Shown piece after piece: positions 14,944 to 38,652 of a stretch of 64,000 bases of DNA (positions are counted from its first letter, which is position 1; each line of letters begins with the position of its first letter). The translations under genes and the position numbers were made by a program. The notes under the pieces were generated by a model. That model saw only the letters and a program-made list of their open reading frames with translations. It searched no databases and was not told where the DNA came from. Source of the stretch: Escherichia phage VEc20; the sequence record MN022785.1. The stretch is one strand, 5' to 3'.

Positions 14944-15180
14944 TTAACCATCTATTGATGTAGGCGTAAACATTGCAGCATTCTTAGTTTTCCAGTCAGC
15001 TGCATCAGAAACTACAGTAGAATATGCTGCCTTTTCAGAAGGAAAGGTCTGATAATGAGAATCTGCAATACGATGCTCGTTAGAATAGATTTCAAACGGA
15101 ACAGAAACTTCCATACCTTTAACTTCTTTGCCTTCACCTGCTGGATGAGTAAAGGTCTTTATATTAACGAAACCACCCAT
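14944..15180 (-). CDS. soc: small outer capsid protein Soc
   Basis: 78-aa ORF; VNIKTF and HYQTFPSEKAAYSTV segments recognisable as Soc. Confidence 0.8.
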   Translation of the reverse strand: MGGFVNIKTFTHPAGEGKEVKGMEVSVPFEIYSNEHRIADSHYQTFPSEKAAYSTVVSDAADWKTKNAAMFTPTSIDG

Positions 15181-15210
15181 AATAAACTCCTTTATTGTTT
15201 AATTACAGGT

Positions 15211-15218
15211 GTATTTAT
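15211..15218 (-). promoter_or_regulatory. T4 late promoter TATAAATA upstream of soc
   Basis: plus strand tatttata = revcomp TATAAATA, about 30 nt upstream of soc ATG. Confidence 0.6.
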
Positions 15219-15389
15219 ATCAATCTTCAATGAAAACTTGTGCCAGGAATTCATGCTCATCTTGAATTTGTTTATATAAAGCCATTACAGCATTTATGTT
15301 AGAGCTATCTACTTTAAGTTGATAAGCATACCACTCATGTAAATTAATTAAAGCTTTTTGACGTCTAATAAATTCTTCTTTGGATATTT

Positions 15390-15599
15390 TCATTTTGAAT
15401 GCTCTATAATTAATTTTAAGGCTTCTTCACTGACAAAAATTTCGTCAGGACCTTTTTCTACAACCCAATCAACCCAATCAACCATACGAAGCTGATTAGA
15501 AAAGAGCTCACATACGAGCTCCTTGTCATAATCTTTAAATAGCTGGTCAATACGCTTCTTGCGGGCTTTCTTGAGCTGGCGTTTATTTAAACGAGCCAT
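15390..15599 (-). CDS. hypothetical basic protein
   Basis: 69-aa ORF between soc and 56. Confidence 0.5.
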   Translation of the reverse strand: MARLNKRQLKKARKKRIDQLFKDYDKELVCELFSNQLRMVDWVDWVVEKGPDEIFVSEEALKLIIEHSK

Positions 15600-16117
15600 T
15601 AATATCCTCTGTCTTGACGAGCGAAGTTTTCAGCATTTTTCAGATAATAAAGTTTAAAGATTTCCTCAGCTGACATTCCAAGAGCAATGAATTTATTCAT
15701 GAAAAAGTGAAATTGATCAATCAGTTCAAATTTAATTTCAAGCTGATCTTCGGGAGATAAATCTTGAATTTTCTTGGATTGCATTTCAGAATAACGTTTC
15801 TTCCAAGGTTTCCATACGGCAGAAGCTTCTTTTTCACCATTACTCATACCACCAAGAGAAGTATATAGCTCGCGAGTTTCATCTGCGATATAATCGTCTT
15901 GGTTTCGCAACCAAGCAAGAACTTCTCCTGCAGTTTCAAGTGAATCAGGATGACGATTTGTTTCTGGTTTATCATTAGCCAAACGAATCTGTAAAGACCG
16001 CTGCATATCAAGCATAACCTGCAATGGGTCAATATTGTGCATAATATTCTCAGCATATGCACGAGTTGCTTTATCAACACCTTCGATCAAATGAGCACAT
16101 TCATTAAAGTGAGCCAT
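15599..16117 (-). CDS. 56: dCTP pyrophosphatase gp56 (MazG-like)
   Basis: ORF track 15599..16210; true start taken as MAHFNECAHLIEG at 16117 with GGA RBS. Confidence 0.85.
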   Translation of the reverse strand: MAHFNECAHLIEGVDKATRAYAENIMHNIDPLQVMLDMQRSLQIRLANDKPETNRHPDSLETAGEVLAWLRNQDDYIADETRELYTSLGGMSNGEKEASAVWKPWKKRYSEMQSKKIQDLSPEDQLEIKFELIDQFHFFMNKFIALGMSAEEIFKLYYLKNAENFARQDRGY

Positions 16118-16188
16118 TATTTTTCCTTTCAATTCATGGATTAATAGATTAATTATACAATAAATATATAAAGCAATAAGGAGGACAT

Positions 16189-16389
16189 ATGGTACAAAAA
16201 TTAATGGCACTTGTTAATGCCATAAAAGGTAATAAGAAACGTATAGCTTTTACTATTTCTGCTATGATAGGAATTTTACTTTGGAATTTTGTTCTATCAC
16301 CTGTTGCAATTGCACATGGTATTAATATTCCAGTAGTTACTCTTGATACATTCGTAGATTTAGCATTTGCTTTAGTTGGGTTAATTTAA
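16189..16389 (+). CDS. small hydrophobic protein on plus strand (66 aa)
   Basis: canonical SD AAGGAGG 4-5 nt before ATG; hydrophobic segments; divergent from flanking genes. Confidence 0.45.
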   Translation: MVQKLMALVNAIKGNKKRIAFTISAMIGILLWNFVLSPVAIAHGINIPVVTLDTFVDLAFALVGLI

Positions 16390-17414
16390 ATCTTGGCATA
16401 TTTAGATAACCGCATTTTAGCCATCAACCCCTGGGCAATATTATTTTTCATATATTCCATAATTTGTTCAGGGGTTGCACCTTCCTTTCTAATCATATCA
16501 TTAACATCTTTTGATTTCCAGGGAGATTTATCCCAAAACATAACCCTTTCTCCTGCATCAACTAATTTAGTCATTCGCTTAATAGTGTCAGGATGACGAG
16601 GTTCATTATCTAAAACCCACACACGTCTATCTTTAAATGGAACAACTTCTAGGTCTAATTGACCACCTGTAATAGCTATACCATTTTCAATAAAAAGTGA
16701 ATCTATAGGTCCTTCTAGAACATATACATCACCATCTTTAACTCGTTCGACTCCATAGATTTTTGTTGCCTCAGGATAAGCTTTGATGGTGATATATTTT
16801 TGAGGAGCATCTTTCTTTAATGCACGTCCTTGAAAAGACTCAGCTTTTCCATTAGCATTATAAATTGGAATAACAAGACGAGGCTCAGGTATTTCCTTTT
16901 TATATGTTCCTGGTGCTATACTATTAACTAATTTAGGCCATTCAGTTGTAAACCAAAGATATTTCCATTTATCCTTTGGAATACAACGAGCTTTTACGTA
17001 TTTTATAATTGGATGGTCTTCCGCCAATTTATCTAGTCTAATGCATGACGGAAGAGATTTAATTATTTTCTTCTCAGGTTGTTTAGGAAGTTCTTTAGGT
17101 TTTTCTACTGGACGACTTTTACCTTTTTCTTTTCTTATTTCAAAGATATACTCACGATATAAATCAGGTTCAAACTCCTTTAAATATATTCCGATTGGTG
17201 CATGATAGTTACAGTTATAACAATGAATATTTCCTTCATTATTATCACCATAATACCATCCACGAGCTTTATTCTGGTCGGTTTTTGAATCTCCACAAAC
17301 AGGGCATCTAAACCGCAATTTAAAAGTTGAACTATTATTTACTTGTGTGAATTTAGGTAAATGAGCTAATGCACGATACGCAAACTCATTATCAATCCAA
17401 GGTATTGATGACAT
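16386..17414 (-). CDS. 61: DNA primase gp61
   Basis: 342-aa ORF; zinc-ribbon CPVCGDSK...CYNC and TOPRIM-like core; recognisable as T4 gp61. Confidence 0.9.
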   Translation of the reverse strand: MSSIPWIDNEFAYRALAHLPKFTQVNNSSTFKLRFRCPVCGDSKTDQNKARGWYYGDNNEGNIHCYNCNYHAPIGIYLKEFEPDLYREYIFEIRKEKGKSRPVEKPKELPKQPEKKIIKSLPSCIRLDKLAEDHPIIKYVKARCIPKDKWKYLWFTTEWPKLVNSIAPGTYKKEIPEPRLVIPIYNANGKAESFQGRALKKDAPQKYITIKAYPEATKIYGVERVKDGDVYVLEGPIDSLFIENGIAITGGQLDLEVVPFKDRRVWVLDNEPRHPDTIKRMTKLVDAGERVMFWDKSPWKSKDVNDMIRKEGATPEQIMEYMKNNIAQGLMAKMRLSKYAKI

Positions 17415-17416
17415 TT

Positions 17417-17581
17417 TTACTCTTCTTTTTCTTTAGATTCCTCTTTTTTCTTTTTAGGAATCTGCTCAGGACCTTTATTTACTACAGAGCCTGACGTTGT
17501 TCCAGTAGAGATATTTTCAGGATTACCACCTGAATCTCCAGCGACCATATCTTCTTTGATAAATTCTTTATATGTTTTCAT
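17417..17581 (-). CDS. hypothetical protein (61.1 position), 54 aa
   Basis: hand-translated MKTYKEFIKEDMVAGD...; stop adjacent to gene 61 start. Confidence 0.4.
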   Translation of the reverse strand: MKTYKEFIKEDMVAGDSGGNPENISTGTTSGSVVNKGPEQIPKKKKEESKEKEE

Positions 17582-17582
17582 A

Positions 17583-17939
17583 TTAACCTCTATTCATAAA
17601 AGCATTAAAAATTTGGTCATCAATAGATGGTGCAGTAATATTTTCTGCATCATTTAGCAAATCATTAATTTCATCAGATAGCATAACACATGTACCTTTA
17701 TTTCCTGTAATTGTTACTGCGCAATTACGAACGTTTTCTTTATTAAATTTTAGGTTAATATTTTCGTAATGAAAATCCTTTAATGCTGAATATATTTTTA
17801 AAATAAAATTGTCTTTTACTACAATAAACCCAACCTCACTATTAAAACGTGGTTCATGGAAACTGTAATAAACCTTTTCATCTATAAAATCGTATGAAAT
17901 TTTTTCCATTTTTAAATATGAAAATTCAGAACTATACAT
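17583..17939 (-). CDS. hypothetical protein (61.2 position)
   Basis: 118-aa ORF. Confidence 0.55.
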   Translation of the reverse strand: MYSSEFSYLKMEKISYDFIDEKVYYSFHEPRFNSEVGFIVVKDNFILKIYSALKDFHYENINLKFNKENVRNCAVTITGNKGTCVMLSDEINDLLNDAENITAPSIDDQIFNAFMNRG

Positions 17940-17951
17940 ACTAACCTCTAA

Positions 17952-18245
17952 TTACTCACCTACCACTTCAGCGATGATATTTTTGTTATTAAAGTTTTTA
18001 TCGCAATACAGAACATAATTATACTACATTACACCACCAGACTTAAGCTGTTTTTGCACTTCGGCTTTCATTTCAGGACGATCGCGCTCAACGATATTCA
18101 TAATATCTGCTTCAATTTGAGTTTCAACCTCAGTCTGATCAGCAGTCATAGACCATTCGCACAAATCTTTATCATAACCTGCCATAGCAGGCTGAGCAGC
18201 ACAAGAAGATAAAGCAAAAATTGTAGCAAAGATAAATTTTTTCAT
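17952..18245 (-). pseudogene. sp: spackle (61.3) homologue interrupted by in-frame TAG at codon 74
   Basis: 73-aa ORF with signal peptide ends at TAG (18024-18026); 23 more in-frame sense codons (YNYVLYCDKNFNNKNIIAEVVGE) run to TAA just before next gene's RBS; total 97 codons. Confidence 0.55.
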
Positions 18246-18271
18246 GATAATCTCCTCAGCAGTTTATGTTT

Positions 18272-18303
18272 ATATAGTATCTCAATTTCCAACAAAAGTA
18301 AAC
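18272..18303 (-). promoter_or_regulatory. T4 early-type promoter upstream of spackle homologue
   Basis: GTTTAC, 18 nt, TACTAT. Confidence 0.45.
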
Positions 18304-18305
18304 AG

Positions 18306-18563
18306 TTATTTTAAAACTTCTGCGTAATCACATGTTACAAACTGTTTCTCTAGCTTAACGATCTTACGAAAATACCTTTTACACTGACGAATCTGTCGCT
18401 TCGTAGGACGTACAGCAAACTTAATAAATTCAACTCGACCAAATGGAGGACTTTCTTCTGCTGGAATATCTAACACCAATTCCCACGTATCTGAAATAAG
18501 TGCTTTGAATTGCGTATTTTTCCTGACGTTATACGGAGTAGGTTTAAATAAAACAATATGCAT
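18306..18563 (-). CDS. hypothetical protein (61.4 position)
   Basis: ORF track 18306..18605; start trimmed to internal ATG to avoid overlap with dmd. Confidence 0.45.
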   Translation of the reverse strand: MHIVLFKPTPYNVRKNTQFKALISDTWELVLDIPAEESPPFGRVEFIKFAVRPTKRQIRQCKRYFRKIVKLEKQFVTCDYAEVLK

Positions 18564-18564
18564 A

Positions 18565-18747
18565 TTATCCTCGGCAATCCACTTCACACACTTTCTTGTC
18601 ATCAATGAAAGCTTTAACTAATGCTTTATTAACTTCGGCATATTGAGTAGTAGCCCATTGAACGTCATCTTTCATCATTGTAGTTTCTTTAGTAAACATG
18701 CTTTCATTCTTAAACCACCCCATAAAAACTACCTTTACCAATTCCAT
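18565..18747 (-). CDS. dmd: Dmd (61.5), inhibitor of host RnlA/LsoA toxins
   Basis: 60-aa ORF immediately downstream of gene 41; size and position match. Confidence 0.7.
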   Translation of the reverse strand: MELVKVVFMGWFKNESMFTKETTMMKDDVQWATTQYAEVNKALVKAFIDDKKVCEVDCRG

Positions 18748-18805
18748 AACAATCTCCTCATTTAACCAACAAGACTACTATACCATAGTCTTGTCAGCTT
18801 GTAAA

Positions 18806-20233
18806 CTAAAATTTTAATTCATTTGCCAAAGCATCTAACTGAGCTCGAGTGGATTCATTTCTTTGATAGCGATTCTGCTCAGCCTGAATCTGTTGTGAAC
18901 CTGCTACTTCGTTCACTTCAGTTGGAGTAGAATCTTGTTCAATTTCTACCCATTTTTGATTTCCTTTTTGAACACCCATCAAAAACTTATTCCATTTGTT
19001 CTTATCACCATATCGTGATTTGATTTGCTTAATGAGTTGTTGTTCAGCAGCTGCTAGCTCCTCGGTTTCAATGACCGCAAGCATAAAATCGGCTGTTGCT
19101 GGAAGACCAGCAGATTCTGCAATATCGCTCATGTTAACATCAGAAGAATCCCAAGCCTGTTTACCAACCTGTGCTGCAGTCCAAAGAACAGTTTCGGTTT
19201 CAACAGCAAGAGCACGCAATTCCTCTGCAATAGCTTTAACAGTTGTGTAACTATTTTCTGAATAAACTCTAATGCGGCAAGATTTACAAATACCTAGATA
19301 GTCGACAATAATGATTGTTGGAACAAAATTCTTCTTGAGCTTCAATTCGTTTAAAAGTGATCGAAATGTATTAGCGTCTGCTCCACCAGTAGGATATTGC
19401 TTAACGATTAAACGACCAAGGGTAGATTTCTCACGCCATTTTTCCATTTTTCCTTTATATTCAGCGTAAGAAATATGCCCATCATCAATGTCATCAAGAG
19501 AAACATCAAGCATGTTAGCGTCAATACGCTTAGCACAGACTTCTTCTGCCATTTCCATGGAAATGTAAAGAACGTTATGACCAAGCTGCAAATAATCTGC
19601 TGCTAATGAACAAAGTCCTAATGATTTACCGACGTTAACGCCAGCCATTAAAACGTTCAGTGTTCCAGTCTCAGCTCCGCCTTTAGTAATTTTGTTTAGA
19701 ATTCTGAGTTTAAATGGAACCTTACGAGCTTTATTCATATAAGATAGCCAACGTGCTTCATAGTCATCCATCCAATCATGGCCAACGTAGCTATCAAATG
19801 AAATTGATAATGCTTGGCGCATGATGTCAGGAATAGCACCTACATCTGGCATTTTCTTATTTCGTTTTTCTGGAGGAAGCTCAGCATTGGTTTGAATTTC
19901 GATTATTTTAGACGTAGCATTAAACATCGCCCTTTGCTGAACATATTTTTCTGTTTCTTTTATTAACCAGCTGTGGTCTTCTGGAGAATCAGCCAGTTTT
20001 GAAATAAGTGTTTTTACACCAGAATATTCTGTTTCAGTAAATGAACTATTTTCTAATGCAACATTTAACGCATTAATAGATGGAACGCTATGATACTCAT
20101 TAACATGAGATTTAATTAATTTGAATGTATTTTTAGCTGGACCACTTTCAAAATATTCTGAATCCATATATGGCCAAACTTTTGAAAAATAAGCTTGATC
20201 AAATATGAGATGAGAAAGAATAATTTCTACCAC
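18806..20233 (-). CDS. 41: replicative DNA helicase gp41 (DnaB-like)
   Basis: 475-aa ORF; Walker A GVNVGKS; size matches T4 gp41. Confidence 0.9.
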   Translation of the reverse strand: MVEIILSHLIFDQAYFSKVWPYMDSEYFESGPAKNTFKLIKSHVNEYHSVPSINALNVALENSSFTETEYSGVKTLISKLADSPEDHSWLIKETEKYVQQRAMFNATSKIIEIQTNAELPPEKRNKKMPDVGAIPDIMRQALSISFDSYVGHDWMDDYEARWLSYMNKARKVPFKLRILNKITKGGAETGTLNVLMAGVNVGKSLGLCSLAADYLQLGHNVLYISMEMAEEVCAKRIDANMLDVSLDDIDDGHISYAEYKGKMEKWREKSTLGRLIVKQYPTGGADANTFRSLLNELKLKKNFVPTIIIVDYLGICKSCRIRVYSENSYTTVKAIAEELRALAVETETVLWTAAQVGKQAWDSSDVNMSDIAESAGLPATADFMLAVIETEELAAAEQQLIKQIKSRYGDKNKWNKFLMGVQKGNQKWVEIEQDSTPTEVNEVAGSQQIQAEQNRYQRNESTRAQLDALANELKF

Positions 20234-20242
20234 ACTTACTCC

Positions 20243-20605
20243 TTAAAAGAATTTAAATTTTTTCTTTGACCTTTTATTAAATGCATCTTGCAGTTGCATT
20301 GTAATACATTTTTCTACATGAGGAGCTAACTCAGCTTTTCTTTCTTGGTCAAGAACAGCAAAGTCCATTACAACCTTTCCATCAACCCAATCCAGTTTAG
20401 TTACATACACTATATGTGTAGAACCATCTTCTAGTTTAATGACAATCTCCTGGATAACATTTTCCATAGCGGATTTAATTATCTTAAGAGATTCATTAAA
20501 AAGACGTTCTTTTCTTTCTTCTTCCCCCTCCGAAGAGGGGGATTCATCGATAATTTCTAGATCTAAATCTAAATCATCTTTATTCATTAAATTCTTCCAT
20601 ATCAC
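20243..20605 (-). CDS. 40: gp40 head-assembly accessory protein (positional)
   Basis: 120-aa acidic ORF between 41 and uvsX. Confidence 0.6.
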   Translation of the reverse strand: MIWKNLMNKDDLDLDLEIIDESPSSEGEEERKERLFNESLKIIKSAMENVIQEIVIKLEDGSTHIVYVTKLDWVDGKVVMDFAVLDQERKAELAPHVEKCITMQLQDAFNKRSKKKFKFF

Positions 20606-21761
20606 TTAACTGTTCTAGGTCAGTTTCTAAATCAGCAGCTGATTTACTTTTACTTTCTGGAGATTTAAATTTTTCAACCTTTGAGTTAATCAATTCATCA
20701 ACTTCAGCTTCAACAATTTCATTACTATCAATAGCACCTAACTGATAAGCACGTTTAATAGCATCTCGGAATGGTTGATGCTTAAATAAAGGACCCCAGA
20801 ATGTAGTGCAGTTGGTATCTTTTGCACGCCAAGATTTTTCTTCGCGAATCATCTCACCGGTTTCTTCATCAAGAAATTCACGGGCATACCAGCCATTTTT
20901 AGGTTTTACTACAAATCCTAATTCTAGAGCCATATCTAACAATCCAGAATAAGGATCGATACCACCGTCAAATTTAACATCAATAAAGAATTTACTTTTT
21001 TCTTTAACGGTACGAGATTTTTCTACATTTAGAACAAATTGATACCCCTGAAGATCAGAACCATCTTTAATCTGACGTTTACCGATAATGAATACAGTAT
21101 CAGCCGAATACATTACGCCTGTACCACCTGTCATCACGGTTTTACTAAACATTTCAATTGTTTCAATTGTATGGTTAACCGCAACACACGGAATATTTTT
21201 AATGCTAAAATAAGGAGTAACGATACGGAATAATGACTTCAGTGATTTAGCACGAGTCATATCTGCCACAGATTTTTCATTCAAGGCATCTTCCGTTTCT
21301 TTCTTAGAAGCCATATTACCAATTGAGTCGATGAATACTATAACCTTTTCACCACGCTCAATAGCTTCAAGCTGATTCACCATATCAATTTTCAGCTGTT
21401 CAACTGATTGAATTGGCGTATGAATTACACGTTCCGGGTCAACTCCCATGGATCGCAAATAAGCTGGAGTAATACCAAATTCGCTATCATAGAATAGACA
21501 AACCGCGTCAGGATATTTGTTCAAATATGCCGCAACCATAGTCAAAGACATATTTGATTTAAAGTGTTTAGAAGGCCCTGCGAAAATAGTTAAACCAGAC
21601 TGCATACCGCCATCAATCGCACCAGAAATAGCAATATTCAGCATTGGAATTTTTGTACGGATTACATCCTTTTCATTAAAGAATTTAGATGTAGTCAGTT
21701 CAGCAGTCATTTTAGAAGTGGAAGCTTTAATCAAACGGGATTTTAAATCTGCAATAGACAT
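20580..21761 (-). CDS. uvsX: UvsX recombinase (RecA-like)
   Basis: 393-aa ORF; Walker A GPSKHFKS; near-identical to remembered T4 UvsX. Confidence 0.95.
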   Translation of the reverse strand: MSIADLKSRLIKASTSKMTAELTTSKFFNEKDVIRTKIPMLNIAISGAIDGGMQSGLTIFAGPSKHFKSNMSLTMVAAYLNKYPDAVCLFYDSEFGITPAYLRSMGVDPERVIHTPIQSVEQLKIDMVNQLEAIERGEKVIVFIDSIGNMASKKETEDALNEKSVADMTRAKSLKSLFRIVTPYFSIKNIPCVAVNHTIETIEMFSKTVMTGGTGVMYSADTVFIIGKRQIKDGSDLQGYQFVLNVEKSRTVKEKSKFFIDVKFDGGIDPYSGLLDMALELGFVVKPKNGWYAREFLDEETGEMIREEKSWRAKDTNCTTFWGPLFKHQPFRDAIKRAYQLGAIDSNEIVEAEVDELINSKVEKFKSPESKSKSAADLETDLEQLSDMEEFNE

Positions 21762-21814
21762 TCATTTTTTCCATAGGCATCATTATATTTTCCTCACTGG
21801 TTAAAGATAGAGTA

Positions 21815-21838
21815 ATTATAACACAATAAATTTAGGCA
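21815..21838 (-). promoter_or_regulatory. MotA-box-like middle promoter upstream of uvsX
   Basis: minus strand TGCCTAA (one mismatch to TGCTTTA), 11 nt, TATAAT. Confidence 0.35.
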
Positions 21839-22681
21839 TTAATCAACTGCTATTGGATGAATAGCATTAAACTTATGAAATGCTTCTGATTTTTCTTTAC
21901 GTGAAACGCACATGCGAAGAACCTTTAATGGCTCGTCTTCTTCACCCAACGATTTTCGTTTTTCAATATTAGAAGTTTTCCAACGAGCTTGCTCTGGAAA
22001 CTCTCTATTGATTTGCTCAAGCGCTCTATTATGTTTAGAATTACTACGAATTGAACTGCACCCGCCAGGAGCTTGTGCTTTTCCAGATACAACCAGATAT
22101 TTGAACAAGGCCAAATGCGGATAACCTTGATTAATTAAATTGAGAAATGCATACATATCTTCGCACAAATCAATTTTTCCATACCCAATTTGTTCTGTCG
22201 TAAGTTTTCCAAGGTCATACCATGTATTCGTGAATCCATATGAGTTTTCACGATAATTGCCCCAAGATGAAGTAATTTTAAAAATTGGTAGACGAGCATG
22301 ACCGTGATAATACCCGCAATCCATGGCATCTTCAACGTATTGAATTAATTCATAGAACTGTTCACGAGTTAATTGATTAATTTTATCTACACGCCGTTTA
22401 TCGTCTCTCTTTCGTATTGAACTCATACGAATAGTAGTATCATCATCAATCATCCAGATTCGTTGACCTGCATACATATCAGTAATTGCTTTACGAGTAC
22501 CGGCAATTCCATTAACATCATCAGGAATAGTTACAATTTTAGCTCTAGACCCATAAGCATCATAATAAGCTTTTTCTTCGTGTTCACGCACTACAATATG
22601 GGGTTCATAATCAGTCGGAAACATATTAAGGGCAGAAACTGCCCCTACACGCTGATAACTTGGAATTACGAATTGAATCAT
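21839..22681 (-). CDS. GT-A-fold glycosyltransferase (DxD motif), possibly a beta-alpha glucosyltransferase acting on HMC DNA
   Basis: 280-aa ORF at the beta-gt position; WMIDDDTTIRM motif; not the 351-aa T4 beta-gt. Confidence 0.6.
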   Translation of the reverse strand: MIQFVIPSYQRVGAVSALNMFPTDYEPHIVVREHEEKAYYDAYGSRAKIVTIPDDVNGIAGTRKAITDMYAGQRIWMIDDDTTIRMSSIRKRDDKRRVDKINQLTREQFYELIQYVEDAMDCGYYHGHARLPIFKITSSWGNYRENSYGFTNTWYDLGKLTTEQIGYGKIDLCEDMYAFLNLINQGYPHLALFKYLVVSGKAQAPGGCSSIRSNSKHNRALEQINREFPEQARWKTSNIEKRKSLGEEDEPLKVLRMCVSRKEKSEAFHKFNAIHPIAVD

Positions 22682-23319
22682 TTAAGTGCCTTACATTTGT
22701 CAAAATGGTATCTTGTCATATTTGGCCCACGTCCTTTTAGTCCGCAATGCGGACATATTTTTTCTATCAAATTATGAGGTTTTCCTTTACGATTTTTAGA
22801 CATCGTTTCTTTAATTATTTTAGCTTTTTCTACGCCAAAAATTTCTTCATAAGTTTTACCAGAATTTTCCTTGGCTCGATTTATAATTCCATATGCCTGC
22901 TCATTTTTACCATACATTGGATTACCTTCGCCTTTCATTCTTTTAGAATGATCAGGACGCTTGATTCCACGAAAGGCATTTCCGCACTTATATCTTTCTT
23001 CTGGAGATAGTTTTTTACCGTACATTCCATTTAATTTGCCTGGAAAACTTCCTCCCCATGCTTCATTCTTTAAATTATATGAATCCGGACAATTAGCAGC
23101 ATCTAAACAAGTTAAAATAATTTCTTCAACCTGTCTAAACATTGGTCCTTCATATAATATTTCTTTATTAAAGGATTTTATTCCATATTTCTTTTTAGCA
23201 TGTTGCCAAACTACACCCGAACCATCATAATTCGGGTTGTGACCATCATGACTTCCTATATACCACTTTTTAGTTTTAGGATGTTTATACTTATAAACAT
23301 GTGGCACATTTACTTCCAT
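22678..23319 (-). CDS. GIY-YIG homing endonuclease (Seg-like) with NUMOD3-type DNA-binding repeats
   Basis: 213-aa ORF; N-terminal VYKYKH...KWYIGSHDG; repeats GKLNGMYGKK and GEGNPMYGKN; overlaps both neighbours. Confidence 0.75.
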   Translation of the reverse strand: MEVNVPHVYKYKHPKTKKWYIGSHDGHNPNYDGSGVVWQHAKKKYGIKSFNKEILYEGPMFRQVEEIILTCLDAANCPDSYNLKNEAWGGSFPGKLNGMYGKKLSPEERYKCGNAFRGIKRPDHSKRMKGEGNPMYGKNEQAYGIINRAKENSGKTYEEIFGVEKAKIIKETMSKNRKGKPHNLIEKICPHCGLKGRGPNMTRYHFDKCKALK

Positions 23320-24050
23320 TTTCCAGTATAATCCTTTTTAGCAATATGAGTCTCACCGGTGTTCCACCAATGGTCAACTAAATAAAACTGATTTTCGTAC
23401 ACATGAAGACTTCCAACGTTCCATATAATAGAACCTGCTTTATATTGCCGCGATGGGTCGCCTGCATTCAAATCAGATACTAATTTATCTAGTACGTATT
23501 TTTGCCAAGCATAATCATTACGATAGCCTGCCCAGCAATCATTGCTTCTCATGCTAACAACCGCATTGACTTTCTTATCACGAATCAGGTACTGTACTGT
23601 ATTAGTACACATGAAATCTGACATACCATCTTTATTGTAGTCAAATTGCATGGATGGACGAGTATAAATCATGATACCACGTCGAGAATCAGGATTTTGA
23701 CCAAGTTCAGCTAAACACATATCATACTGGGCATAGTTATCTTCTGACCAAATAGCCCAACCATAATTCGAGTTAATTTCGCCTTTAGAAGATGCTACCT
23801 GCTGCCAAATCTTTGGTGTTTCACCTGGAATATCTTTAACGAACAAGCTCTTAGATTTATACCATTCAAGTTCACGCTGAATGTATTCATCATTAAGAGC
23901 GCCAAAAATAAACGGTTCATCTGCTATAAATGATGCGCCAATAATTTCAATAGTTTTAACGCCAGTTTTATCAACTACGAAATCTTTTTCTTTTAATGCA
24001 AGCCCCAAATGAAGACGGATTTCTTCAACTGTCATAGAGTCATTAATCAT
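23310..24050 (-). CDS. 42: dCMP hydroxymethylase gp42
   Basis: 246-aa ORF; thymidylate-synthase-like fold; size matches T4 gp42. Confidence 0.9.
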   Translation of the reverse strand: MINDSMTVEEIRLHLGLALKEKDFVVDKTGVKTIEIIGASFIADEPFIFGALNDEYIQRELEWYKSKSLFVKDIPGETPKIWQQVASSKGEINSNYGWAIWSEDNYAQYDMCLAELGQNPDSRRGIMIYTRPSMQFDYNKDGMSDFMCTNTVQYLIRDKKVNAVVSMRSNDCWAGYRNDYAWQKYVLDKLVSDLNAGDPSRQYKAGSIIWNVGSLHVYENQFYLVDHWWNTGETHIAKKDYTGKWK

Positions 24051-24057
24051 TTAAACC

Positions 24058-24207
24058 TCAATTGATGCATTCATATTTAAATTGTAACAGTAATAAACCC
24101 CACCCTATGATAAGAGTTGGAATCATAGCAGGAACTGTTACGCTATAGTATATACTTATTATAACCATCAAGATTAAAAGCAATGCTGCTATAATTTTGC
24201 TTTTCAT
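24058..24207 (-). CDS. small membrane protein (49 aa)
   Basis: hand-translated MKSKIIAALLLILMVIISIYYS...; ATGA overlap with imm stop. Confidence 0.35.
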   Translation of the reverse strand: MKSKIIAALLLILMVIISIYYSVTVPAMIPTLIIGWGLLLLQFKYECIN

Positions 24208-24455
24208 TCCTTCTCTCTGATGATAATTACTTGATTTGGCTGTGCAGACTTTTTAGTTTCACCCGCAATTGACCAAATAAATGTAATAAACCAACCAATA
24301 ATTGACCAGTTAAACAGTAAAGATGTGAAAAAGATTCCTACTGTCGATTTTGACCCACGCATCAAGGCGATAAACCATGGAAGCATGTATATAATAATAG
24401 CCAACACACCTGAAACTAAAACCATAAAAATTGAACCTGCTACTAAAGTTTCCAT
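24204..24455 (-). CDS. imm: Imm, superinfection immunity membrane protein
   Basis: 83-aa ORF with two transmembrane segments; size matches T4 Imm. Confidence 0.85.
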   Translation of the reverse strand: METLVAGSIFMVLVSGVLAIIIYMLPWFIALMRGSKSTVGIFFTSLLFNWSIIGWFITFIWSIAGETKKSAQPNQVIIIREKE

Positions 24456-24462
24456 GTTTTCC

Positions 24463-24855
24463 TCACTTAGTCAAATTTTTTACACATGAATTATAAGAAT
24501 TCACTACATACTCCATAGGAGCATTTTTACCTGTACGCCACTGGTAATTATTAGCCCAATTTGCCCAAAGTTCAGCGCAGTAGTTTTCAATTTTTTCTTC
24601 GCGTGTAATTACATCTGAATTACGATATGCTTGAGCAGATTCATCTGGACGAATAGCTTCGTCAAAATTCGCCTGCATTTGTTCTACTGTTTGCTTTGGA
24701 GCTTCTTTATAACACTTGACATTAGGATTATAAAATTTGCTTGAACAGTTTACAATTTTTCCTGCATCAGACTGATTTACTACCGGTCCTTGAGCTACAC
24801 AACCAGTAAGACCTAATGCAATAACCAAAATAGCGATTTTCATTTCATTCTCCAA
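24463..24855 (-). CDS. putative lipoprotein (imm.1 position)
   Basis: 130-aa ORF; signal peptide with lipobox LTGC. Confidence 0.6.
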   Translation of the reverse strand: MENEMKIAILVIALGLTGCVAQGPVVNQSDAGKIVNCSSKFYNPNVKCYKEAPKQTVEQMQANFDEAIRPDESAQAYRNSDVITREEKIENYCAELWANWANNYQWRTGKNAPMEYVVNSYNSCVKNLTK

Positions 24856-24876
24856 ATCCGTATTAGTTGATAGTTG

Positions 24877-24908
24877 TATAGTACCATGGAAGAACAGTCT
24901 TGTAAACA
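24877..24908 (-). promoter_or_regulatory. T4 early-type promoter (GTTTAC, 18 nt, TGGTACTAT)
   Basis: part of repeated promoter module also seen near 50102 and 52021. Confidence 0.55.
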
Positions 24909-24993
24909 GTTTTGTGAAAAATTTTTTAGGGAATTCTAAGGGTCCAGAATCATCTGTTTTTCATAAGTATAGATTTATATTACTTGTATGAAA

Positions 24994-25013
24994 AAGGGAC
25001 CCGGAGGTCCCTA
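24994..25013 (-). terminator. stem-loop terminator after gene 43 (agggacc-cgga-ggtccct)
   Basis: 7-bp GC stem followed by U-tract on minus strand. Confidence 0.55.
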
Positions 25014-25024
25014 GATTTATTCTA

Positions 25025-27721
25025 TCAGCCAAACAGGAAGTCTAACGAAGCTTTTTCTTCATAGTCCATACCAGCCGATTCACACATACCCGCAAGCGGT
25101 TTAACAAACGATTTTTGGAACAAAGTTGAGTAGTCAATCCAAGATAGTACATCAGAACGAATTTCTTTTGGAAGTTCTGTGCCCGACGGCCAAGCAATGC
25201 ACTTGTCACCAAATGGATTTCCTTCACGCAATGGAAGAACCATTACTTTATTTCCATCCAAAATTGGAGCTACACCCAGACCACTAACAGCTCGACGATA
25301 AGTTAGCACACCGCGAATATGGAACGGGCATTTAAATCCTGGCCAACCTTTATCATCATATTTCGCTATATCGTTCGCAGTTTTTACTTCAGCAATAACT
25401 TTATAGTCGAGTTGACGATATTCTTTCTCGAAGTTCTTGTAATATTCTTGGACAGACTCTTCACCTTCCTGAAGAATACGACGAATACTTTCTTCGAGAG
25501 CTTCTTGCACTGCTTTTGGTGTTGAACTCTGCTGAGTTTCCATACCCATGATTTTTAGATGTGGTTCAGCAAATCGCTTATCTTCCATATCATAAACGTT
25601 CAGAGCATAACGCTTTTTCGCTTTCCAAAATCCGCCAACGCCCTTTGAACCAAGCGGAGGGCAAGAAATAGCTTCACGGTCCATATGCATCAGATGCTCG
25701 CGGTTATTCATATAATCACATAACTCACGATATGCAACATCAATCATAGGTTCCATCTTTTTCTTACCGAACTGATTCATGAATTCAACCAAATCGTTCT
25801 GCTCTTTGAATCGGTCAAGACCTACTTTTTCAATAACTTTATCTACACAAACATATACCGAATCAGTATCACCTGCTGCAATGAAATCTTCGCCATTAGT
25901 TCCGCATACTTTATTCAGATATTCATTAATTTTACGAGCAATCCACTGAATACCGACTTGGCCAAAAATTGTGATAGCAGTAGCATTTCGCAAATCATAG
26001 TAACGGAAATGAATATTACCAAGAGCACCATAAAGACTGTTAATGAGAATTTTACGGTTCAGCTGATTTGTGTTAGCAAGTGTAGCAGCTTTTTCACATT
26101 CCTCAATCAGACTATTGAGAACAGATTCAGTATAATTCGACAGTTCATTTAAGAAATCATCACTGAACTTAACATATCGTTCAACTTCTGGTTTAGTTGA
26201 ACAAGACCCTGCGCCTTTCATAATAATCTTTTTAATAGCTTCGGCATTCATTTCTTCAGCGAACATTTTCTTTTTCCAGTCTTTACGCTGGAAAAATACT
26301 TTAGCGATTTCCTTTGGAATGATACCTTCTTGATGCTTATCATACATCCATCCATTCGGAGAACAAGAATATTCATCACTTGGTTTAGGAGCTGTTCCTG
26401 CGATATATTCATGAATTGGATGAACTTTAAACTGCCCACGAATAGTCTCAGGACTAATGTTAACCTGACGAATAATGCTAGGATACAGAGACGTCAAGTC
26501 AAAACTCATAATATATCGACGAGCAATTGGTTTAGGTTCAAATACAAATGCACCCGGAAAACTCTGTTTAACATGCGAACCTTGTTGAGGAATAACCTTG
26601 TGTTCACCTTTCAATGAGTTAAAAATAATAGCATCCCAAGTTTTAATAGGACTCATTACACCAGAAAAAGGCATTTTAGCATAATAAGACATACTTAAAA
26701 CTAGATCGATAAACCCGCGAATTTTATCAATTGCTTGAACTGATTCTACGTCAATGATGTTATAACTAATATATCGCTGATGATTAGTCTCACGAAGTTT
26801 ATTAATAGGACCATCGTACGGTAATTTACCTTTTTTGGTTTCATGTTGAGCAACTGATTCCAAAGAGAATGACGGCAAATTAGTAAATGCGAATTTCTTA
26901 TACAAATCTAAATAATCAAGAATAGATACGCCATCAATAGAATAAATTTCTTTGCTACCGTACATATTTTGAATTAGTTTAGATTTTACCCGACCGATTG
27001 GAGAGAAACGTTTCATACTGCGTTCACCGAGAACCATTTTAACGCGATTCATGATATACGGAACGTCAAATCCCTCAATATTCCAACCAGTAAAAATAGC
27101 AGGTCGTTTCTGTTCCCAGAGATTAATATATTCCATGAGCATATCACGCTCATTATCAAATGGCATATAAATTACTCGGTCAAGAATTTCTTGAGGAACT
27201 TCATCACCACCTTCACAGTCAAGCTTAGCAGCTAACTTTGCATCCCATTTTGATACTGAACCGTACATTGAATTCAAAAGGTCGAAAACATAAAAACGAT
27301 CGTCAATTGAATCATAATGAGTGATAGCATCAATTTCATATTCAGCTTTCATTGGGTCAGGAAATTTATCACCAGTAACCTCAATGTCACAGTTAGCTAC
27401 ACGAACAAATTTTCGGTCATAAACAATTTCTGAACCATACGTATCACTGATATAAGCGAGTTTAAAATCGTTCATACCAAGAGCTTCGAGACCGATGTCT
27501 TCCATTCGCTTCATCCAATCTCGAGCATCTTTCATTGATTGAAATTTTTGAGGAGCGCAATTTTTACCATAAATGTCTTTGTACTTTGACTCTTCCTTAC
27601 AATGCCTAAACATAGTTGGAAGATATTCTACTTCACGAGTACGTTCCTTTCCGTTTTCATCAATATAACGTTCAACAATGTTATTTCCGACTGTTTCGAT
27701 AGAGATATAAAATTCTTTCAT
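25025..27721 (-). CDS. 43: DNA polymerase gp43 (family B)
   Basis: 898-aa ORF; exonuclease and polymerase motifs (e.g. AAGDTDS); length matches T4 gp43. Confidence 0.95.
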   Translation of the reverse strand: MKEFYISIETVGNNIVERYIDENGKERTREVEYLPTMFRHCKEESKYKDIYGKNCAPQKFQSMKDARDWMKRMEDIGLEALGMNDFKLAYISDTYGSEIVYDRKFVRVANCDIEVTGDKFPDPMKAEYEIDAITHYDSIDDRFYVFDLLNSMYGSVSKWDAKLAAKLDCEGGDEVPQEILDRVIYMPFDNERDMLMEYINLWEQKRPAIFTGWNIEGFDVPYIMNRVKMVLGERSMKRFSPIGRVKSKLIQNMYGSKEIYSIDGVSILDYLDLYKKFAFTNLPSFSLESVAQHETKKGKLPYDGPINKLRETNHQRYISYNIIDVESVQAIDKIRGFIDLVLSMSYYAKMPFSGVMSPIKTWDAIIFNSLKGEHKVIPQQGSHVKQSFPGAFVFEPKPIARRYIMSFDLTSLYPSIIRQVNISPETIRGQFKVHPIHEYIAGTAPKPSDEYSCSPNGWMYDKHQEGIIPKEIAKVFFQRKDWKKKMFAEEMNAEAIKKIIMKGAGSCSTKPEVERYVKFSDDFLNELSNYTESVLNSLIEECEKAATLANTNQLNRKILINSLYGALGNIHFRYYDLRNATAITIFGQVGIQWIARKINEYLNKVCGTNGEDFIAAGDTDSVYVCVDKVIEKVGLDRFKEQNDLVEFMNQFGKKKMEPMIDVAYRELCDYMNNREHLMHMDREAISCPPLGSKGVGGFWKAKKRYALNVYDMEDKRFAEPHLKIMGMETQQSSTPKAVQEALEESIRRILQEGEESVQEYYKNFEKEYRQLDYKVIAEVKTANDIAKYDDKGWPGFKCPFHIRGVLTYRRAVSGLGVAPILDGNKVMVLPLREGNPFGDKCIAWPSGTELPKEIRSDVLSWIDYSTLFQKSFVKPLAGMCESAGMDYEEKASLDFLFG

Positions 27722-27739
27722 AGATATTCCTTAGTTTAT

Positions 27740-27757
27740 AGCCCGAGTTATTAGGCT
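27740..27757 (-). promoter_or_regulatory. putative gp43 translational operator hairpin upstream of SD
   Basis: minus strand AGCC-taataactcg-GGCT about 18 nt upstream of gene 43 ATG, next to AAGGA SD. Confidence 0.35.
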
Positions 27758-27779
27758 CTTGATATATTATACTCCAATT

Positions 27780-27797
27780 AAGGGGCCGAAGCCCCTT
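27780..27797 (-). terminator. GC stem-loop (aggggc-cgaa-gcccct)
   Basis: perfect stem with UUCG-type loop; weak U-tract, may be RNA-stability element. Confidence 0.4.
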
Positions 27798-27799
27798 GC

Positions 27800-28021
27800 T
27801 TAAATTAGTACTATTTGTCGGGTGAAAATTGTCAATCCATCTGCATTAATTGACTTAACGACCGCGGTAAAGTGTTTTTGTTCTGGGTGAACTAATTTTT
27901 GAAATTCTACCTGAAATTTTAGTTGAAGGTTTTCTGGTAAATCGAAAAGTGTTTCTGTTGCAGAAAGATTATATTTTTCTTTAAGAGACGCCATGTATTC
28001 TTGCGGAGTTATAGCAGTCAT
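27800..28021 (-). CDS. hypothetical protein
   Basis: ORF track 27800..28063; start trimmed to ATG 28021 next to regA stop. Confidence 0.45.
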   Translation of the reverse strand: MTAITPQEYMASLKEKYNLSATETLFDLPENLQLKFQVEFQKLVHPEQKHFTAVVKSINADGLTIFTRQIVLI

Positions 28022-28022
28022 A

Positions 28023-28391
28023 TTAATTACCAATCGTATATTTAGGAACGAGTTTCCATTCATGTTTTTGTTTAAAAGAAATAACTCGGAAGTTATTAGT
28101 TAAATCTTTCATAAAAGTTCTTTGACCAGGAACGATTTCAATCAGTCCCCAATCTTCTAATAGCCATGCAATCGAATCACGACGAACTTCATCTTCTTCT
28201 GTCATTTCAACTTGACGACCATCCATACGAAGCATTTCTTTAAAATGAACGATATAGTATAGTCCTTTTTTCTGAAGAATATGACAGGACTGATACAGAA
28301 CTTTATCTTTATTATTAGCAATTCCCATACGAGTCAAAGTTTCTTTTACTTTCAGAAAATCTTCAGGTTTTTTAAGAGTAATTTCAATCAT
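28023..28391 (-). CDS. regA: RegA translational repressor
   Basis: 122-aa ORF; size and position match. Confidence 0.85.
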   Translation of the reverse strand: MIEITLKKPEDFLKVKETLTRMGIANNKDKVLYQSCHILQKKGLYYIVHFKEMLRMDGRQVEMTEEDEVRRDSIAWLLEDWGLIEIVPGQRTFMKDLTNNFRVISFKQKHEWKLVPKYTIGN

Positions 28392-28392
28392 T

Positions 28393-28956
28393 TTACCATT
28401 CCAATGCTAGTTTTTTGAGTTGTTTCTGTTCTTTTACGTTCTTAGTCACTTCTTTCAAAAAATCATCCGTGACTAAACCTTTTAGTTCTTTTAATACTAA
28501 AGGAAGTTTTCCATTTTTAGTAAGAATTGATTTATAGTTAATTGCATCATTTGTATTAACTTGATACCGCTTAGCAAGTAACTTAATAATCAATACTTCG
28601 GTGGAATCTTCAACCAGTTTTGCCCATTTACCATATCTTTTACCACGAGGAACTGCAGCCATTAGATAATTAAAATGAGCTTCATCACTTAAGCCTGATC
28701 CAATTAAATTCATAGCATATACAGCTGGCATGCACTCTGGAAATTGTGATAATGCATTTTCAACCATGAATTTTGAATAATCTTTTTGGGCAATTGAGCA
28801 TTTAGTTTTATTATTAATAGCTCCAATTATTTCAAAAAATTCATTTTCAGCTTTTTCTTTAAAAGAATCAGCAGCAGATTGGACAGCTGTCCAATCTTTT
28901 GAATACCAAGCAACTTGATGCTCGTTTAATTGAATATCATCTTCAAATAAGCTCAT
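28393..28956 (-). CDS. 62: clamp loader small subunit gp62
   Basis: 187-aa ORF; size and position match. Confidence 0.85.
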
Positions 28957-28957
28957 A

Positions 28958-29917
28958 TCACTTCCACTGCATTTCGCATGCTAATTGAATGAAAAGATAA
29001 GCTAAATGCAATTCAGTATTAGCTGCAATACCATGATACTGATTATTTTCGCCGACAATTTCGTACATACGAATAATACTCTGTGGTGTTACACGTGAAT
29101 AGATTTCTTCGGCAAGTTTACCCACGAACCACGAATAATCGGCTGCATATTTTGGTGCTAAAGCTCTGAGTTGTTTAACATCTTTATTTTTGAGAGACTC
29201 AAGAACATCATCAATAGCACCACGATCGTTAGTAACCAGTGATAAAATACCAGCATCCAAAACACCTTTAGATGAATAACTATCGAGCTCGCCAATAGTT
29301 TTACGAAAATCAGGAAAATTCTTTTTAACCAAAGCTGCTACAACTTTCATATCAGCTATAGCAATACCTTCATGTTTACAGATTTCAGTCAATCGACGAA
29401 TCATCTGCTTCATCATTTCAATTTTATCTTCATCGGTCGGTTGACCGAACGTAATAACTCGGCAGCGTGACTGAAGTGGTTTAATAATACCATCAATATT
29501 GTTAGCAGTAATAATAATACTACAGTTTGAACTATAAGCTTCCATAAAGGAACGAAGATGTCGCTGAGATTCTGCTAAACCTGAGCGGTCAAATTCATCA
29601 ATAACGATTACTTTTTGACGACCATCAAATGAAGCTGCACTCGCAAAATTAGTTAAAGGACCACGAACGAAATCAATTTTACAGTCTGATCCATTTACAA
29701 ACATCATATCAGCATTTACATCATGACACAATGCTTTTGCTACAGTTGTTTTACCTGTTCCTGGAGAAGGAGAATGAAGAATAATATGTGGAATCTTACC
29801 TTTACTTGTAATAGATTTAAAGGTTTCTTTATCAAAGGCGGGAAGAATACATTCATCGATAGTAGATGGACGATATTTCTGTTCAAGAATGTGTTCTTTT
29901 TCATTTACGGTAATCAT
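28958..29917 (-). CDS. 44: clamp loader ATPase gp44
   Basis: Walker A SPGTGKTT; start taken as MITVNEKEH (319 aa) rather than the 5-codon-longer ORF-track start. Confidence 0.9.
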
Positions 29918-29949
29918 AATTTCCTCATTCAAGTTTTAGTGTAAATTAT

Positions 29950-29967
29950 AAAGGGCCGAAGCCCTTT
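29950..29967 (-). terminator. GC stem-loop (aaagggc-cgaa-gcccttt); identical copy at 34660
   Basis: 7-bp stem with 4-nt loop between genes 45 and 44. Confidence 0.45.
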
Positions 29968-29968
29968 A

Positions 29969-30655
29969 TTAAAAATCGTGGGTAGAATCAGCTTCAAGAG
30001 CTACTACATAATTCGCATGTTCACCTTCAAATTTAGCAGCGCCTTGTTTACCTTTTGCCCAAAGCAGAAGTTTATAATTTCCTGGTTGCATTTTCATATT
30101 TGCCATATTGATAATGAAATTAAATGTATTTTCACCATCATAATCACCAAGAGTCAAAGAATATTTAACACGTGTCAAAGCAGAATCTTCTACTTTATTA
30201 AAACCGTTAATTACGATTTTACCTTCTTTTACCGTGATAGCAATTGTATCAATTTGCAGACCACGAGATACACGCAACAGCTGTTGAAGGTCTTCAGCTT
30301 TAATTTCGGTAACAACAGATGCTACCGGGAATGGAATTGGTTTATTAGGAGCAACTACTGTACTCGGATCGGCTGCTGGCCAAAAAATTGTTGAGCGGGC
30401 ATCAGCAATTTTAATATTTCCATCTTCTGACTGGGAAATTTCTGCATCATCATTAACTAGAGACAGAATACCGAGAAAACCGTTCAAATCGTAAATTGCT
30501 ACATCAAAATCAATAACGTCAGAAATATTTGCTTCCGCATAAGTTGTACCATTAACTGCGCGAGTCATAATAAATTGACCTGATTTAAGCATAATACCAG
30601 AGTTAATAGTAGCGAAATTTTTAAGCAGAGCAGTAGTATCTTTAGACAGTTTCAT
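29969..30655 (-). CDS. 45: sliding clamp gp45
   Basis: 228-aa ORF; size and position match. Confidence 0.9.
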   Translation of the reverse strand: MKLSKDTTALLKNFATINSGIMLKSGQFIMTRAVNGTTYAEANISDVIDFDVAIYDLNGFLGILSLVNDDAEISQSEDGNIKIADARSTIFWPAADPSTVVAPNKPIPFPVASVVTEIKAEDLQQLLRVSRGLQIDTIAITVKEGKIVINGFNKVEDSALTRVKYSLTLGDYDGENTFNFIINMANMKMQPGNYKLLLWAKGKQGAAKFEGEHANYVVALEADSTHDF

Positions 30656-30684
30656 GTAATTTCCTTCAATTCAAATGAGATTTA

Positions 30685-30709
30685 ATTTTATAACTAATTA
30701 AATAAAGCA
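30685..30709 (-). promoter_or_regulatory. MotA-dependent middle promoter upstream of gene 45
   Basis: minus strand tTGCTTTA, 12 nt, TAAAAT. Confidence 0.5.
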
Positions 30710-30710
30710 A

Positions 30711-31100
30711 TTAACGATTAAAATCAGCTGCGATTGTTTCGGCAACAATTTGAGCAGCAACAATCAGACGTTCATCTGCATTGCCGCAATATTCATCTTC
30801 AAGGCGTTCACCACATGAAGTCATAATAAATTTAGCACCGGCGTTTAGGGATTCTGTAGTATGTTTGCGCATTAGTTCAATCCATTTATTACTTACTTCA
30901 CGATCGATAGCTTCATAATACGCATGACGAGCAGGTGCAGATTTAATTTTGTTCTGAATAACTTCCATTGCGTTATCAGAAAGAGACAAAACCCATGCTC
31001 GACGAATTTTATTTTGGTTTTGTGGATTTGATTCAGAACGCACGTGTTTTGGCTGAATATCTTTTACATCAACAGTATAATTCACAGTAATTTTAGTCAT
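30711..31100 (-). CDS. rpbA: RNA polymerase-binding protein RpbA
   Basis: 129-aa ORF; size and position match. Confidence 0.75.
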
Positions 31101-31109
31101 AATACACCT

Positions 31110-31298
31110 TTAGTCATAATAATCAGTAACAGTCCAAGCTTCATTTCTGTTGGACATTATTTTCGTATATTCTGCTTTAAATGCATTCTTAAGCATAGAT
31201 TCAGTAACTATATGCTCTTCATTAGAAAAATTATTTCTCAGAATATATCGTTTTATTTCAGGAATAGTTAATAGATGCTGTCCAGTTGAATATTCCAT
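31110..31298 (-). CDS. hypothetical protein (45.2 position)
   Basis: 62-aa ORF. Confidence 0.55.
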   Translation of the reverse strand: MEYSTGQHLLTIPEIKRYILRNNFSNEEHIVTESMLKNAFKAEYTKIMSNRNEAWTVTDYYD

Positions 31299-31353
31299 GT
31301 TTTTCCTCCATAGAGATTATACTCTAATAAATTAAAGCATAATCTCTTATAAA

Positions 31354-33036: not shown

Positions 33037-33296
33037 AAAAGATTCCTTTTAATGTATCTTTTAGACCATTCTATCATATCATCATAATCTAAAAAGTATT
33101 CATCAAATTCAGCCATGCAAACAACGCCTTGTGCTGTTTTTGATGTAATATAAATTATTCCAACATATCTAGAATCTTCTTCGGTATAATCAATGTTTGC
33201 TATGAATTCATCATTAATGTCAAATGTCGAAAACTTCACAGTATGCATCCTTAATACAAGATACGGCCATATCTCGTAATGACTTAGGTGTGTCAT
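33033..33296 (-). CDS. hypothetical protein (46.1 position); start uncertain
   Basis: 87-aa ORF; overlaps next ORF by 77 nt. Confidence 0.4.
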   Translation of the reverse strand: MTHLSHYEIWPYLVLRMHTVKFSTFDINDEFIANIDYTEEDSRYVGIIYITSKTAQGVVCMAEFDEYFLDYDDMIEWSKRYIKRNLL

Positions 33297-33483
33297 TATC
33301 TAAAATGTTGAAGTTAAAGGACACAGCCCAGTCAGTGCAGACCGTAACCTTTTTAATACAATTATCTTCAACCTCTAGCGGTTCAAACCAATATTCAATA
33401 ATTTCTTTATGCCCAATATCATCTTTTACTTCGCATTCAAAATGCTGACTCATCATAACATTTTTAAATTCATCAAAAGTCAT
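33220..33483 (-). CDS. hypothetical protein (46.2 position)
   Basis: 87-aa ORF. Confidence 0.45.
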   Translation of the reverse strand: MTFDEFKNVMMSQHFECEVKDDIGHKEIIEYWFEPLEVEDNCIKKVTVCTDWAVSFNFNILDNDTPKSLRDMAVSCIKDAYCEVFDI

Positions 33484-34499: not shown

Positions 34500-34636
34500 A
34501 TATCAAGAACCGTCATTGAAATGCAAAATAAAATTATTGAAATAAACCCATCTGGTGTGCTAAAGAAACCAATCCAGCATGCTCTAGTGAATAGATAAAA
34601 TGCAAGAAAAAGTATCACATATCCAAGAAATATCAT
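34496..34636 (-). CDS. small membrane protein (46 aa)
   Basis: hand-translated MIFLGYVILFLAFYLF...; stop overlaps gene 47 ATG. Confidence 0.3.
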   Translation of the reverse strand: MIFLGYVILFLAFYLFTRACWIGFFSTPDGFISIILFCISMTVLDI

Positions 34637-34659
34637 TATATCAAACTCCGTATAAAGCT

Positions 34660-34677
34660 AAAGGGCCGAAGCCCTTT
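34660..34677 (-). terminator. GC stem-loop, same sequence as 29950..29967
   Basis: aaagggccgaagccctttatt repeated exactly. Confidence 0.45.
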
Positions 34678-35878: not shown

Positions 35879-35901
35879 TTAATATCCTCTTTGTTTTGGT
35901 T

Positions 35902-35929
35902 TATTTTACCAAAAATTTATAAAGCAATA
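35902..35929 (-). promoter_or_regulatory. MotA-dependent middle promoter upstream of agt
   Basis: minus strand TGCTTTA, 11 nt, TAAAAT. Confidence 0.45.
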
Positions 35930-35948
35930 TAGGAGCCGAAGCTCCTAT
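35929..35948 (-). terminator. GC stem-loop (aggagc-cgaa-gctcct)
   Basis: perfect stem, UUCG-type loop. Confidence 0.4.
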
Positions 35949-36610: not shown

Positions 36611-36611
36611 A

Positions 36612-37371: not shown

Positions 37372-37449
37372 TTTCACCTCTTAGCTCAATTCATAGATCT
37401 ATTATATCATAATATTTGAAGATCTATCTTAAAGCATAGAGGATATCAG

Positions 37450-37931: not shown

Positions 37932-37933
37932 AA

Positions 37934-38260: not shown

Positions 38261-38298
38261 ACATTATCCTCAATTACGTTAAAATTTTATTATCCAAA

Positions 38299-38645: not shown

Positions 38646-38652
38646 ATTTTCC

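Follow-up and report, generated by a model that had tools for sequence, protein, structure and literature searches.

In phage T4, the interval from uvsX to gene 42 holds segA and b-gt, whereas in Escherichia phage VEc20 (MN022785.1) a different glycosyltransferase gene lies between the same two genes. The question that this locus raises is which enzyme has taken the place of the T4 beta-glucosyltransferase and, consequently, which sugars the DNA of this phage is expected to carry. The whole stretch of 64,000 nucleotides analysed here is referred to as the window, and the features that bear on the question are collected in Table 1.

Table 1. Features of the VEc20 window relevant to DNA glucosylation (coordinates refer to the window).
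Feature	Position	Strand	Evidence
ba-gt/ggt, beta-glucosyl-HMC-alpha-glucosyltransferase (TAGT, predicted GT-A fold), 280 aa	21839..22681	-	ORF, T2/T6 identity, PF20691, PHROG 842
uvsX, 393 aa, downstream neighbour of ba-gt	20580..21761	-	Pfam T4_UVSX_C, 4.7e-39
Homing-endonuclease-like ORF, 213 aa	22678..23319	-	PHROG 314; T4 SegA similarity
Gene 42, dCMP hydroxymethylase, 246 aa	23310..24050	-	93% to T4 gp42; Pfam Thymidylat_synt
alpha-gt, 400 aa	34676..35878	-	T4/T6 identity; PHROG 2888, E 7e-223
Gene 56, dCTPase/dUTPase, 172 aa	15599..16117	-	100% to T6 gp56
D79-D80-D81 codons, DxD-type motif	22439..22447	-	Read directly; invariant in 10 homologues
E174-D175 codons (C-E-D-M-Y), candidate catalytic-base region, inverting GT-A	22157..22162	-	Conservation, GT2 analogy

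Genomic Context

The window, which opens with the rIIA ORF (1..2178), has a GC content of about 35% and carries nearly every gene on the minus strand; it comes from the early genes of a T4-like phage, genus Tequatrovirus. According to blastn it is collinear with T6-like phages at about 97%, and for positions 15000..39000 the closest record is Escherichia phage vB_EcoM_DalCa (97.5% identity, 100% coverage). The ORF map, the T2/T6 annotation and blastn all place the ba-gt ORF between uvsX and gene 42, with a shared direction of transcription. The homology to T4 DNA ends at position 21749 and starts again at 23318, and the statement of an earlier note on this DNA, that the ORF occupies the beta-gt position, was correct.

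Identity of the 280-aa ORF

The ORF is intact, begins with ATG and encodes W-M-I-D-D-D at residues 76-81, as the earlier note had read it. Its product is 97% identical to the T2 protein over 280 aa, 97% identical over 261 aa to the T6 ggt product (MH550421, annotated as beta-glucosyl-HMC-alpha-glucosyl-transferase) and 96% identical over 280 aa to that of the other T6 record (AP018814). The comparison with the T2/T6 enzymes, which the earlier note had proposed as the way to check its suggestion of a T2/T6-style beta-alpha glucosyltransferase, hence supports that suggestion, in agreement with the match to PHROG 842, "beta-glucosyl-HMC-alpha-glucosyltransferase" (E 1e-88), and to the Pfam family PF20691 (TET-associated glycosyltransferase, TAGT). 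The latter reached 40.8 bits, above the gathering threshold of 27.5 bits, and aligned residues 3-207 with positions 2-205 of the 205 of the model. No NCBIfam model matched either this glycosyltransferase or alpha-gt.

The possibility that the ORF is a homologue of the T4 beta-gt was rejected, since BLASTP revealed no similarity between the two proteins (E 4.1), the ORF did not match PF09198, the family of the T4 enzyme, in Pfam, and a tblastn search with T4 beta-gt across the 64-kb window gave a best E-value of only 1.4. This bears out the earlier claim that the product is not the 351-aa T4 beta-glucosyltransferase. On the whole, we consider it very probable (roughly 94%) that this ORF is orthologous to ba-gt (ggt) of T2/T6 and encodes a TAGT-family enzyme making gentiobiosyl-hmC.

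Fold and Conserved Motifs

A database search retrieved homologues of the ba-gt product down to 28-53% identity, all of them carrying PF20691. In an alignment of ten sequences, reaching down to 31% identity, D79, D80 and D81 are invariant, as are I6-P7-S8-Y9, R11 and D175, with E174 nearly so. The AlphaFold2 model built from this alignment is of moderate confidence (pLDDT 73.6, pTM 0.75) and poor in two loops (residues 135-150 and 194-211, pLDDT <50); it predicts a single Rossmann-like nucleotide-diphospho-sugar transferase fold of the GT-A type, in which the DDD triplet follows a predicted strand (74-77) and the E174-D175 pair stands at the start of a predicted helix (174-184). The structural neighbours of the model are GT2-type enzymes acting on polysaccharides, teichoic acids and lipid carriers. 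The description of the protein as a GT-A enzyme with a DxD motif, put forward beforehand, thus holds.

A search of the PDB with the single ba-gt sequence returned nothing, and a profile search gave one marginal match, in which the first 83 positions, from beta1 to the DxD motif, aligned with AvpGT, a GT2 enzyme (E 0.24); this is weak corroboration. Neither search found a solved structure of a family member. From what is known of GT-A enzymes in general, DDD79-81 would be expected to bind the metal and the UDP-sugar, while the resemblance to the ED/TED motifs found in GT2 enzymes makes E174/D175 the candidate base.

The Probable Modification Pathway

The genes of the hmC pathway (those of gp56 and gp42) and alpha-gt are intact in the window. 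The T4-like 400-aa alpha-gt recognised in the earlier note is indeed present, its product being 91.5% identical to that of T4 and 91.8-92% identical to that of T6. Its substitutions relative to T6 are concentrated at residues about 240-300 (34979..35161; for example YYRLHQVDQIKIAPNLPTQILDRYVN versus YYGNREIDKMNLAPNQPAQILDCYIN), and the remainder of the protein is nearly identical to T6.

The orthology, synteny and family membership established here, together with the fold class, the conserved motifs and the upstream pathway genes, can be arranged into a scheme whose ba-gt chemistry we infer from the T2/T6 literature, along with the catalytic residues and the activity in VEc20. According to this scheme, gp56 would keep unmodified dCTP out of the pool and gp42 would supply hm-dCMP, so that replication would build hmC into DNA from hm-dCTP precursors; alpha-gt would then put an alpha-linked glucose on hmC. 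The ba-gt product, a TAGT enzyme of GT-A fold that is presumably soluble and expressed early, would use UDP-glucose as donor and attach a second glucose, beta-1,6-linked, to alpha-glucosyl-hmC in duplex DNA, yielding gentiobiosyl-hmC. Since the donor is UDP-alpha-glucose and the new linkage is beta, the mechanism would have to be an inverting one; DDD79-81 would then hold the metal and the UDP-sugar, and a conserved acid, probably E174/D175, would serve as base. The di-glucosylated base would in turn protect the DNA against Brig1 and other enzymes recognising alpha-glucosyl-hmC.

This scheme can be compared with data on related phages. The DNA of T6 deleted for ba-gt carries alpha-glucosyl-hmC only, and the mutant withstands the Brig1 DNA glycosylase less well (PMC11078745); the effect on modification-dependent defence that the earlier note had anticipated is thereby demonstrated for T6. 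In addition, HPLC/MS of ten Tequatrovirus phages from Durham that possess alpha-GT and TAGT and lack beta-GT revealed hmdC, alpha-glc-mdC and alpha-gentiobiosyl-mdC, with no beta-glc-mdC. By analogy, the same pattern of bases is to be expected in VEc20 DNA, that is, hmC, alpha-glucosyl-hmC and gentiobiosyl-hmC present and beta-glucosyl-hmC absent.

Activity of the Enzyme and Extent of Di-Glucosylation

The alternative that best withstands the evidence, although we regard it as unlikely, is that ba-gt is inactive or barely active and that the DNA is mono-alpha-glucosylated with free hmC, at a T2-like or lower level of di-glucosylation. Indeed, T2 has an intact 280-aa gene and yet gentiobiosyl-hmC is reported to reach only about 5% in this phage, against 72% in T6 (PMC13390438); since the enzymes of these two phages share 98% identity and differ at five sites, the presence of the gene does not fix the extent of the modification. 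Moreover, both independent T6 sequences bear private lesions in ba-gt, so that propagation of stocks may damage this gene. In MH550421 codon 10 is changed from CAG to TAG (L001 7951..7953), and the annotated product accordingly begins at M20 and has 261 aa; in AP018814/NC_054907 one GAT of GATGATGAT is lost, which turns the invariant DDD into DD (L005 near 1745..1753). Neither change was found among the other ~470 records, and the lesions are either sequencing errors or stock mutations. The T6 RefSeq protein is the reference TAGT in PMC13216743.

A further point in favour of low activity might be a terminator-like hairpin inside the gene (TAGGGGCAG-TTT-CTGCCCTTA followed by a T-rich tail, 22627..22647 on the minus strand, codons 12-19), which the DalCa record annotates as a rho-independent terminator and which is conserved in T2. 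It is, however, conserved in T6 too, and a promoter and terminator scan of 21600..24300 gave counts not above the shuffled expectation, so that no regulatory claim is made. Against an inactive gene stand the intact ORF of the window, in which all conserved residues are kept, and the finding that all ten of the sequenced Durham phages with alpha-GT and TAGT have gentiobiosyl-mdC at about 40% to two-thirds of their cytosines.

As for the extent of di-glucosylation, it cannot be read from the sequence, given the mixture of T2-like and T6-like residues: the window protein differs from those of T2/T6 at about 8-10 residues, none of them in invariant columns; at the five sites that separate T2 from T6 it is T2-like at 41, 55 and 106 and T6-like at 11 and 251, and it has six private substitutions. 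The Durham phages form two groups, one with hmC, alpha-glucosyl and gentiobiosyl forms at roughly 1:2:2 and the other with about one-third hmC and two-thirds gentiobiosyl; a Dam-like gene was noted by those authors in the 1:2:2 group only. In the window no dam is present between genes 56 and 61 (16118..16385), where T4 has one, and tblastn with T4 Dam found no match anywhere in the 64 kb. This absence is a weak hint, and a correlational one, of a T6-like modification pattern. The only ORF of that interval encodes 66 aa on the plus strand (16189..16389), and T6 and DalCa are alike in this respect.

A Homing-Endonuclease-Like Gene and the Gene 42 Allele

Between gene 42 and ba-gt the window carries a 213-aa ORF that was absent from the earlier note. 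Judging from its match to PHROG 314, "homing endonuclease" (2e-31), and from an identity of 37% with the N-terminal portion of T4 SegA (E 1e-9), it is probably a free-standing GIY-YIG-like homing endonuclease gene. With respect to T2/T6 it is a clean insertion of 630 bp (22684..23313) at the junction of the two genes, and it overlaps both of them, the stop of gene 42 with its own start and the ATG of ba-gt with its own stop (ATGA). Only 77 phage records contain the gene, 70 of them with an identity of at least 99%, and the usual annotation is "hypothetical protein".

The adjacent 3' part of gene 42 (23320..23620, 301 nt) shows a sharply bimodal identity: 86 records reach at least 95%, 413 lie at only 80-90%, and there is almost nothing between the two classes. 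The 86 records with this allele roughly match the 77 that bear the endonuclease. The changes of the allele are clustered near the SND active-site region (SNDCWAGY versus SNDVVFGF; VYENQFY versus VYSRHFY). The appearance of the tract suggests co-conversion or cleavage immunity in linkage with the homing endonuclease. One might speculate that the ba-gt allele of the window and the linked endonuclease insertion set a level or specificity of gentiobiosylation unlike those of both T2 and T6, which, if true, could help explain the long-unexplained difference between these two phages; in our opinion this is a long shot.

Other Specificities and Substrates

It appears extremely improbable that the enzyme is a TAGT with a specificity unlike that of T2/T6, using another donor (such as arabinose), another acceptor (such as bare hmC or beta-glucosyl-hmC) or another linkage. 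The family is functionally heterogeneous, with homologues found beside alpha-GT, beside beta-GT or alone and with specificities that are mostly untested (PMC13216743), and Mosigvirus phages have putative DNA arabinosyltransferases (PMC13390438). Nevertheless, the window protein is 96-97% identical to those of T2/T6 and keeps every invariant column, and no T4-type beta-gt is present in the window to supply a beta-glucosyl acceptor. Arabinosylation, for its part, requires a 5-hydroxy-dCMP synthase and an arabinose-precursor gene cluster (PMC13390438), and such Mosigvirus-type companion genes are not found in this T6-collinear window. The arabinosyltransferase assignment was rejected on the gene context, in view of the T4-type gp42, the alpha-gt and the T6-like collinearity.

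The chance that the ORF encodes a non-DNA glycosyltransferase, with, for instance, a glycan of the host envelope or a protein as its substrate, that merely sits at the ba-gt locus is negligible in spite of the substrates of its structural neighbours, given that the deletion of the T6 orthologue removes the second glucose from DNA (PMC11078745) and that ba-gt belongs to a family associated with DNA modification and lies amid DNA-modification and replication genes.

Distribution and Annotation of ba-gt

The ba-gt gene, for which the assignment to the T2/T6 orthologue is retained, was matched in 478 phage records, with at least 90% DNA identity in all but four of them, and many of these records carry its product name; the T4-type b-gt was found in 29 records only, mostly T4 itself and its laboratory relatives. 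On these counts ba-gt is the standard arrangement in the genus, and it is T4 that departs from it. In this respect the earlier note was mistaken, for it implied something unusual where the common and already published state of Tequatrovirus is found. The T2/T6 ba-gt genes were reportedly first sequenced by Winkler and Rueger in 1993. The finding made here is real but ordinary and already known: RefSeq and PHROGs name ba-gt, and papers of 2024-2026 describe its distribution, fold, synteny and defence phenotype (PMC11078745, PMC13216743, PMC13390438).

The public annotation of ba-gt and b-gt is confused. The RB55 and RB59 records label a T4-type b-gt as "beta-glucosyl-HMC-alpha-glucosyl-transferase", the Shigella phage SH7 record labels a TAGT gene as "beta-glucosyltransferase", and in AP018813, the T2 record, ba-gt is no more than a "hypothetical protein" and the gp41 helicase goes under "major capsid protein". 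The pattern of bases predicted for VEc20 bears on the sensitivity to defences that read modified DNA and may be useful for host-range or phage-therapy annotation, with no new biological insight.

Comparison with Known Glycosyltransferases

One of the closest counterparts is the T2 gene (EcT2_00043, AP018813 22282-23124), which, like that of the window, encodes 280 aa with the DDD triplet and lies between uvsX and gene 42. The two proteins are separated by eight substitutions (R11H, N19D, V50I, I89M, K95R, R97C, I101V and P251S), and the genes differ at their upstream junction, where in T2 the start of ba-gt directly overlaps the stop of gene 42, whereas in the window the homing-endonuclease gene is inserted. 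The synteny of T6 (MH550421; AP018814 = NC_054907) is that of the window, but the window copy of ba-gt is intact, whereas each T6 sequence on record shows its own lesion.

The T4 b-gt shares with ba-gt the genomic interval and the type of reaction, both being inverting, UDP-glucose-dependent DNA glucosyltransferases that form a beta linkage. The acceptor, however, is bare hmC for the T4 enzyme and alpha-glucosyl-hmC for ba-gt, and the two proteins, the former of 351 aa with a GT-B fold (PF09198) and the latter with a predicted GT-A fold, have no sequence similarity. The PF20691 TAGT proteins of other phages have the N-terminal IPSY..R and the DDD triplet in common with the window protein; the genomic contexts of the distant members (~30% identity, such as P0011) differ from that of the window. 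Finally, the cellular GT2 enzymes of GT-A fold (BcsA, TarP/TarS, GlfT2 and AvpGT) are only 7-15% identical to the window protein; their acceptors are polysaccharides, teichoic acids or lipid-linked molecules rather than DNA. The window protein is free of membrane domains.
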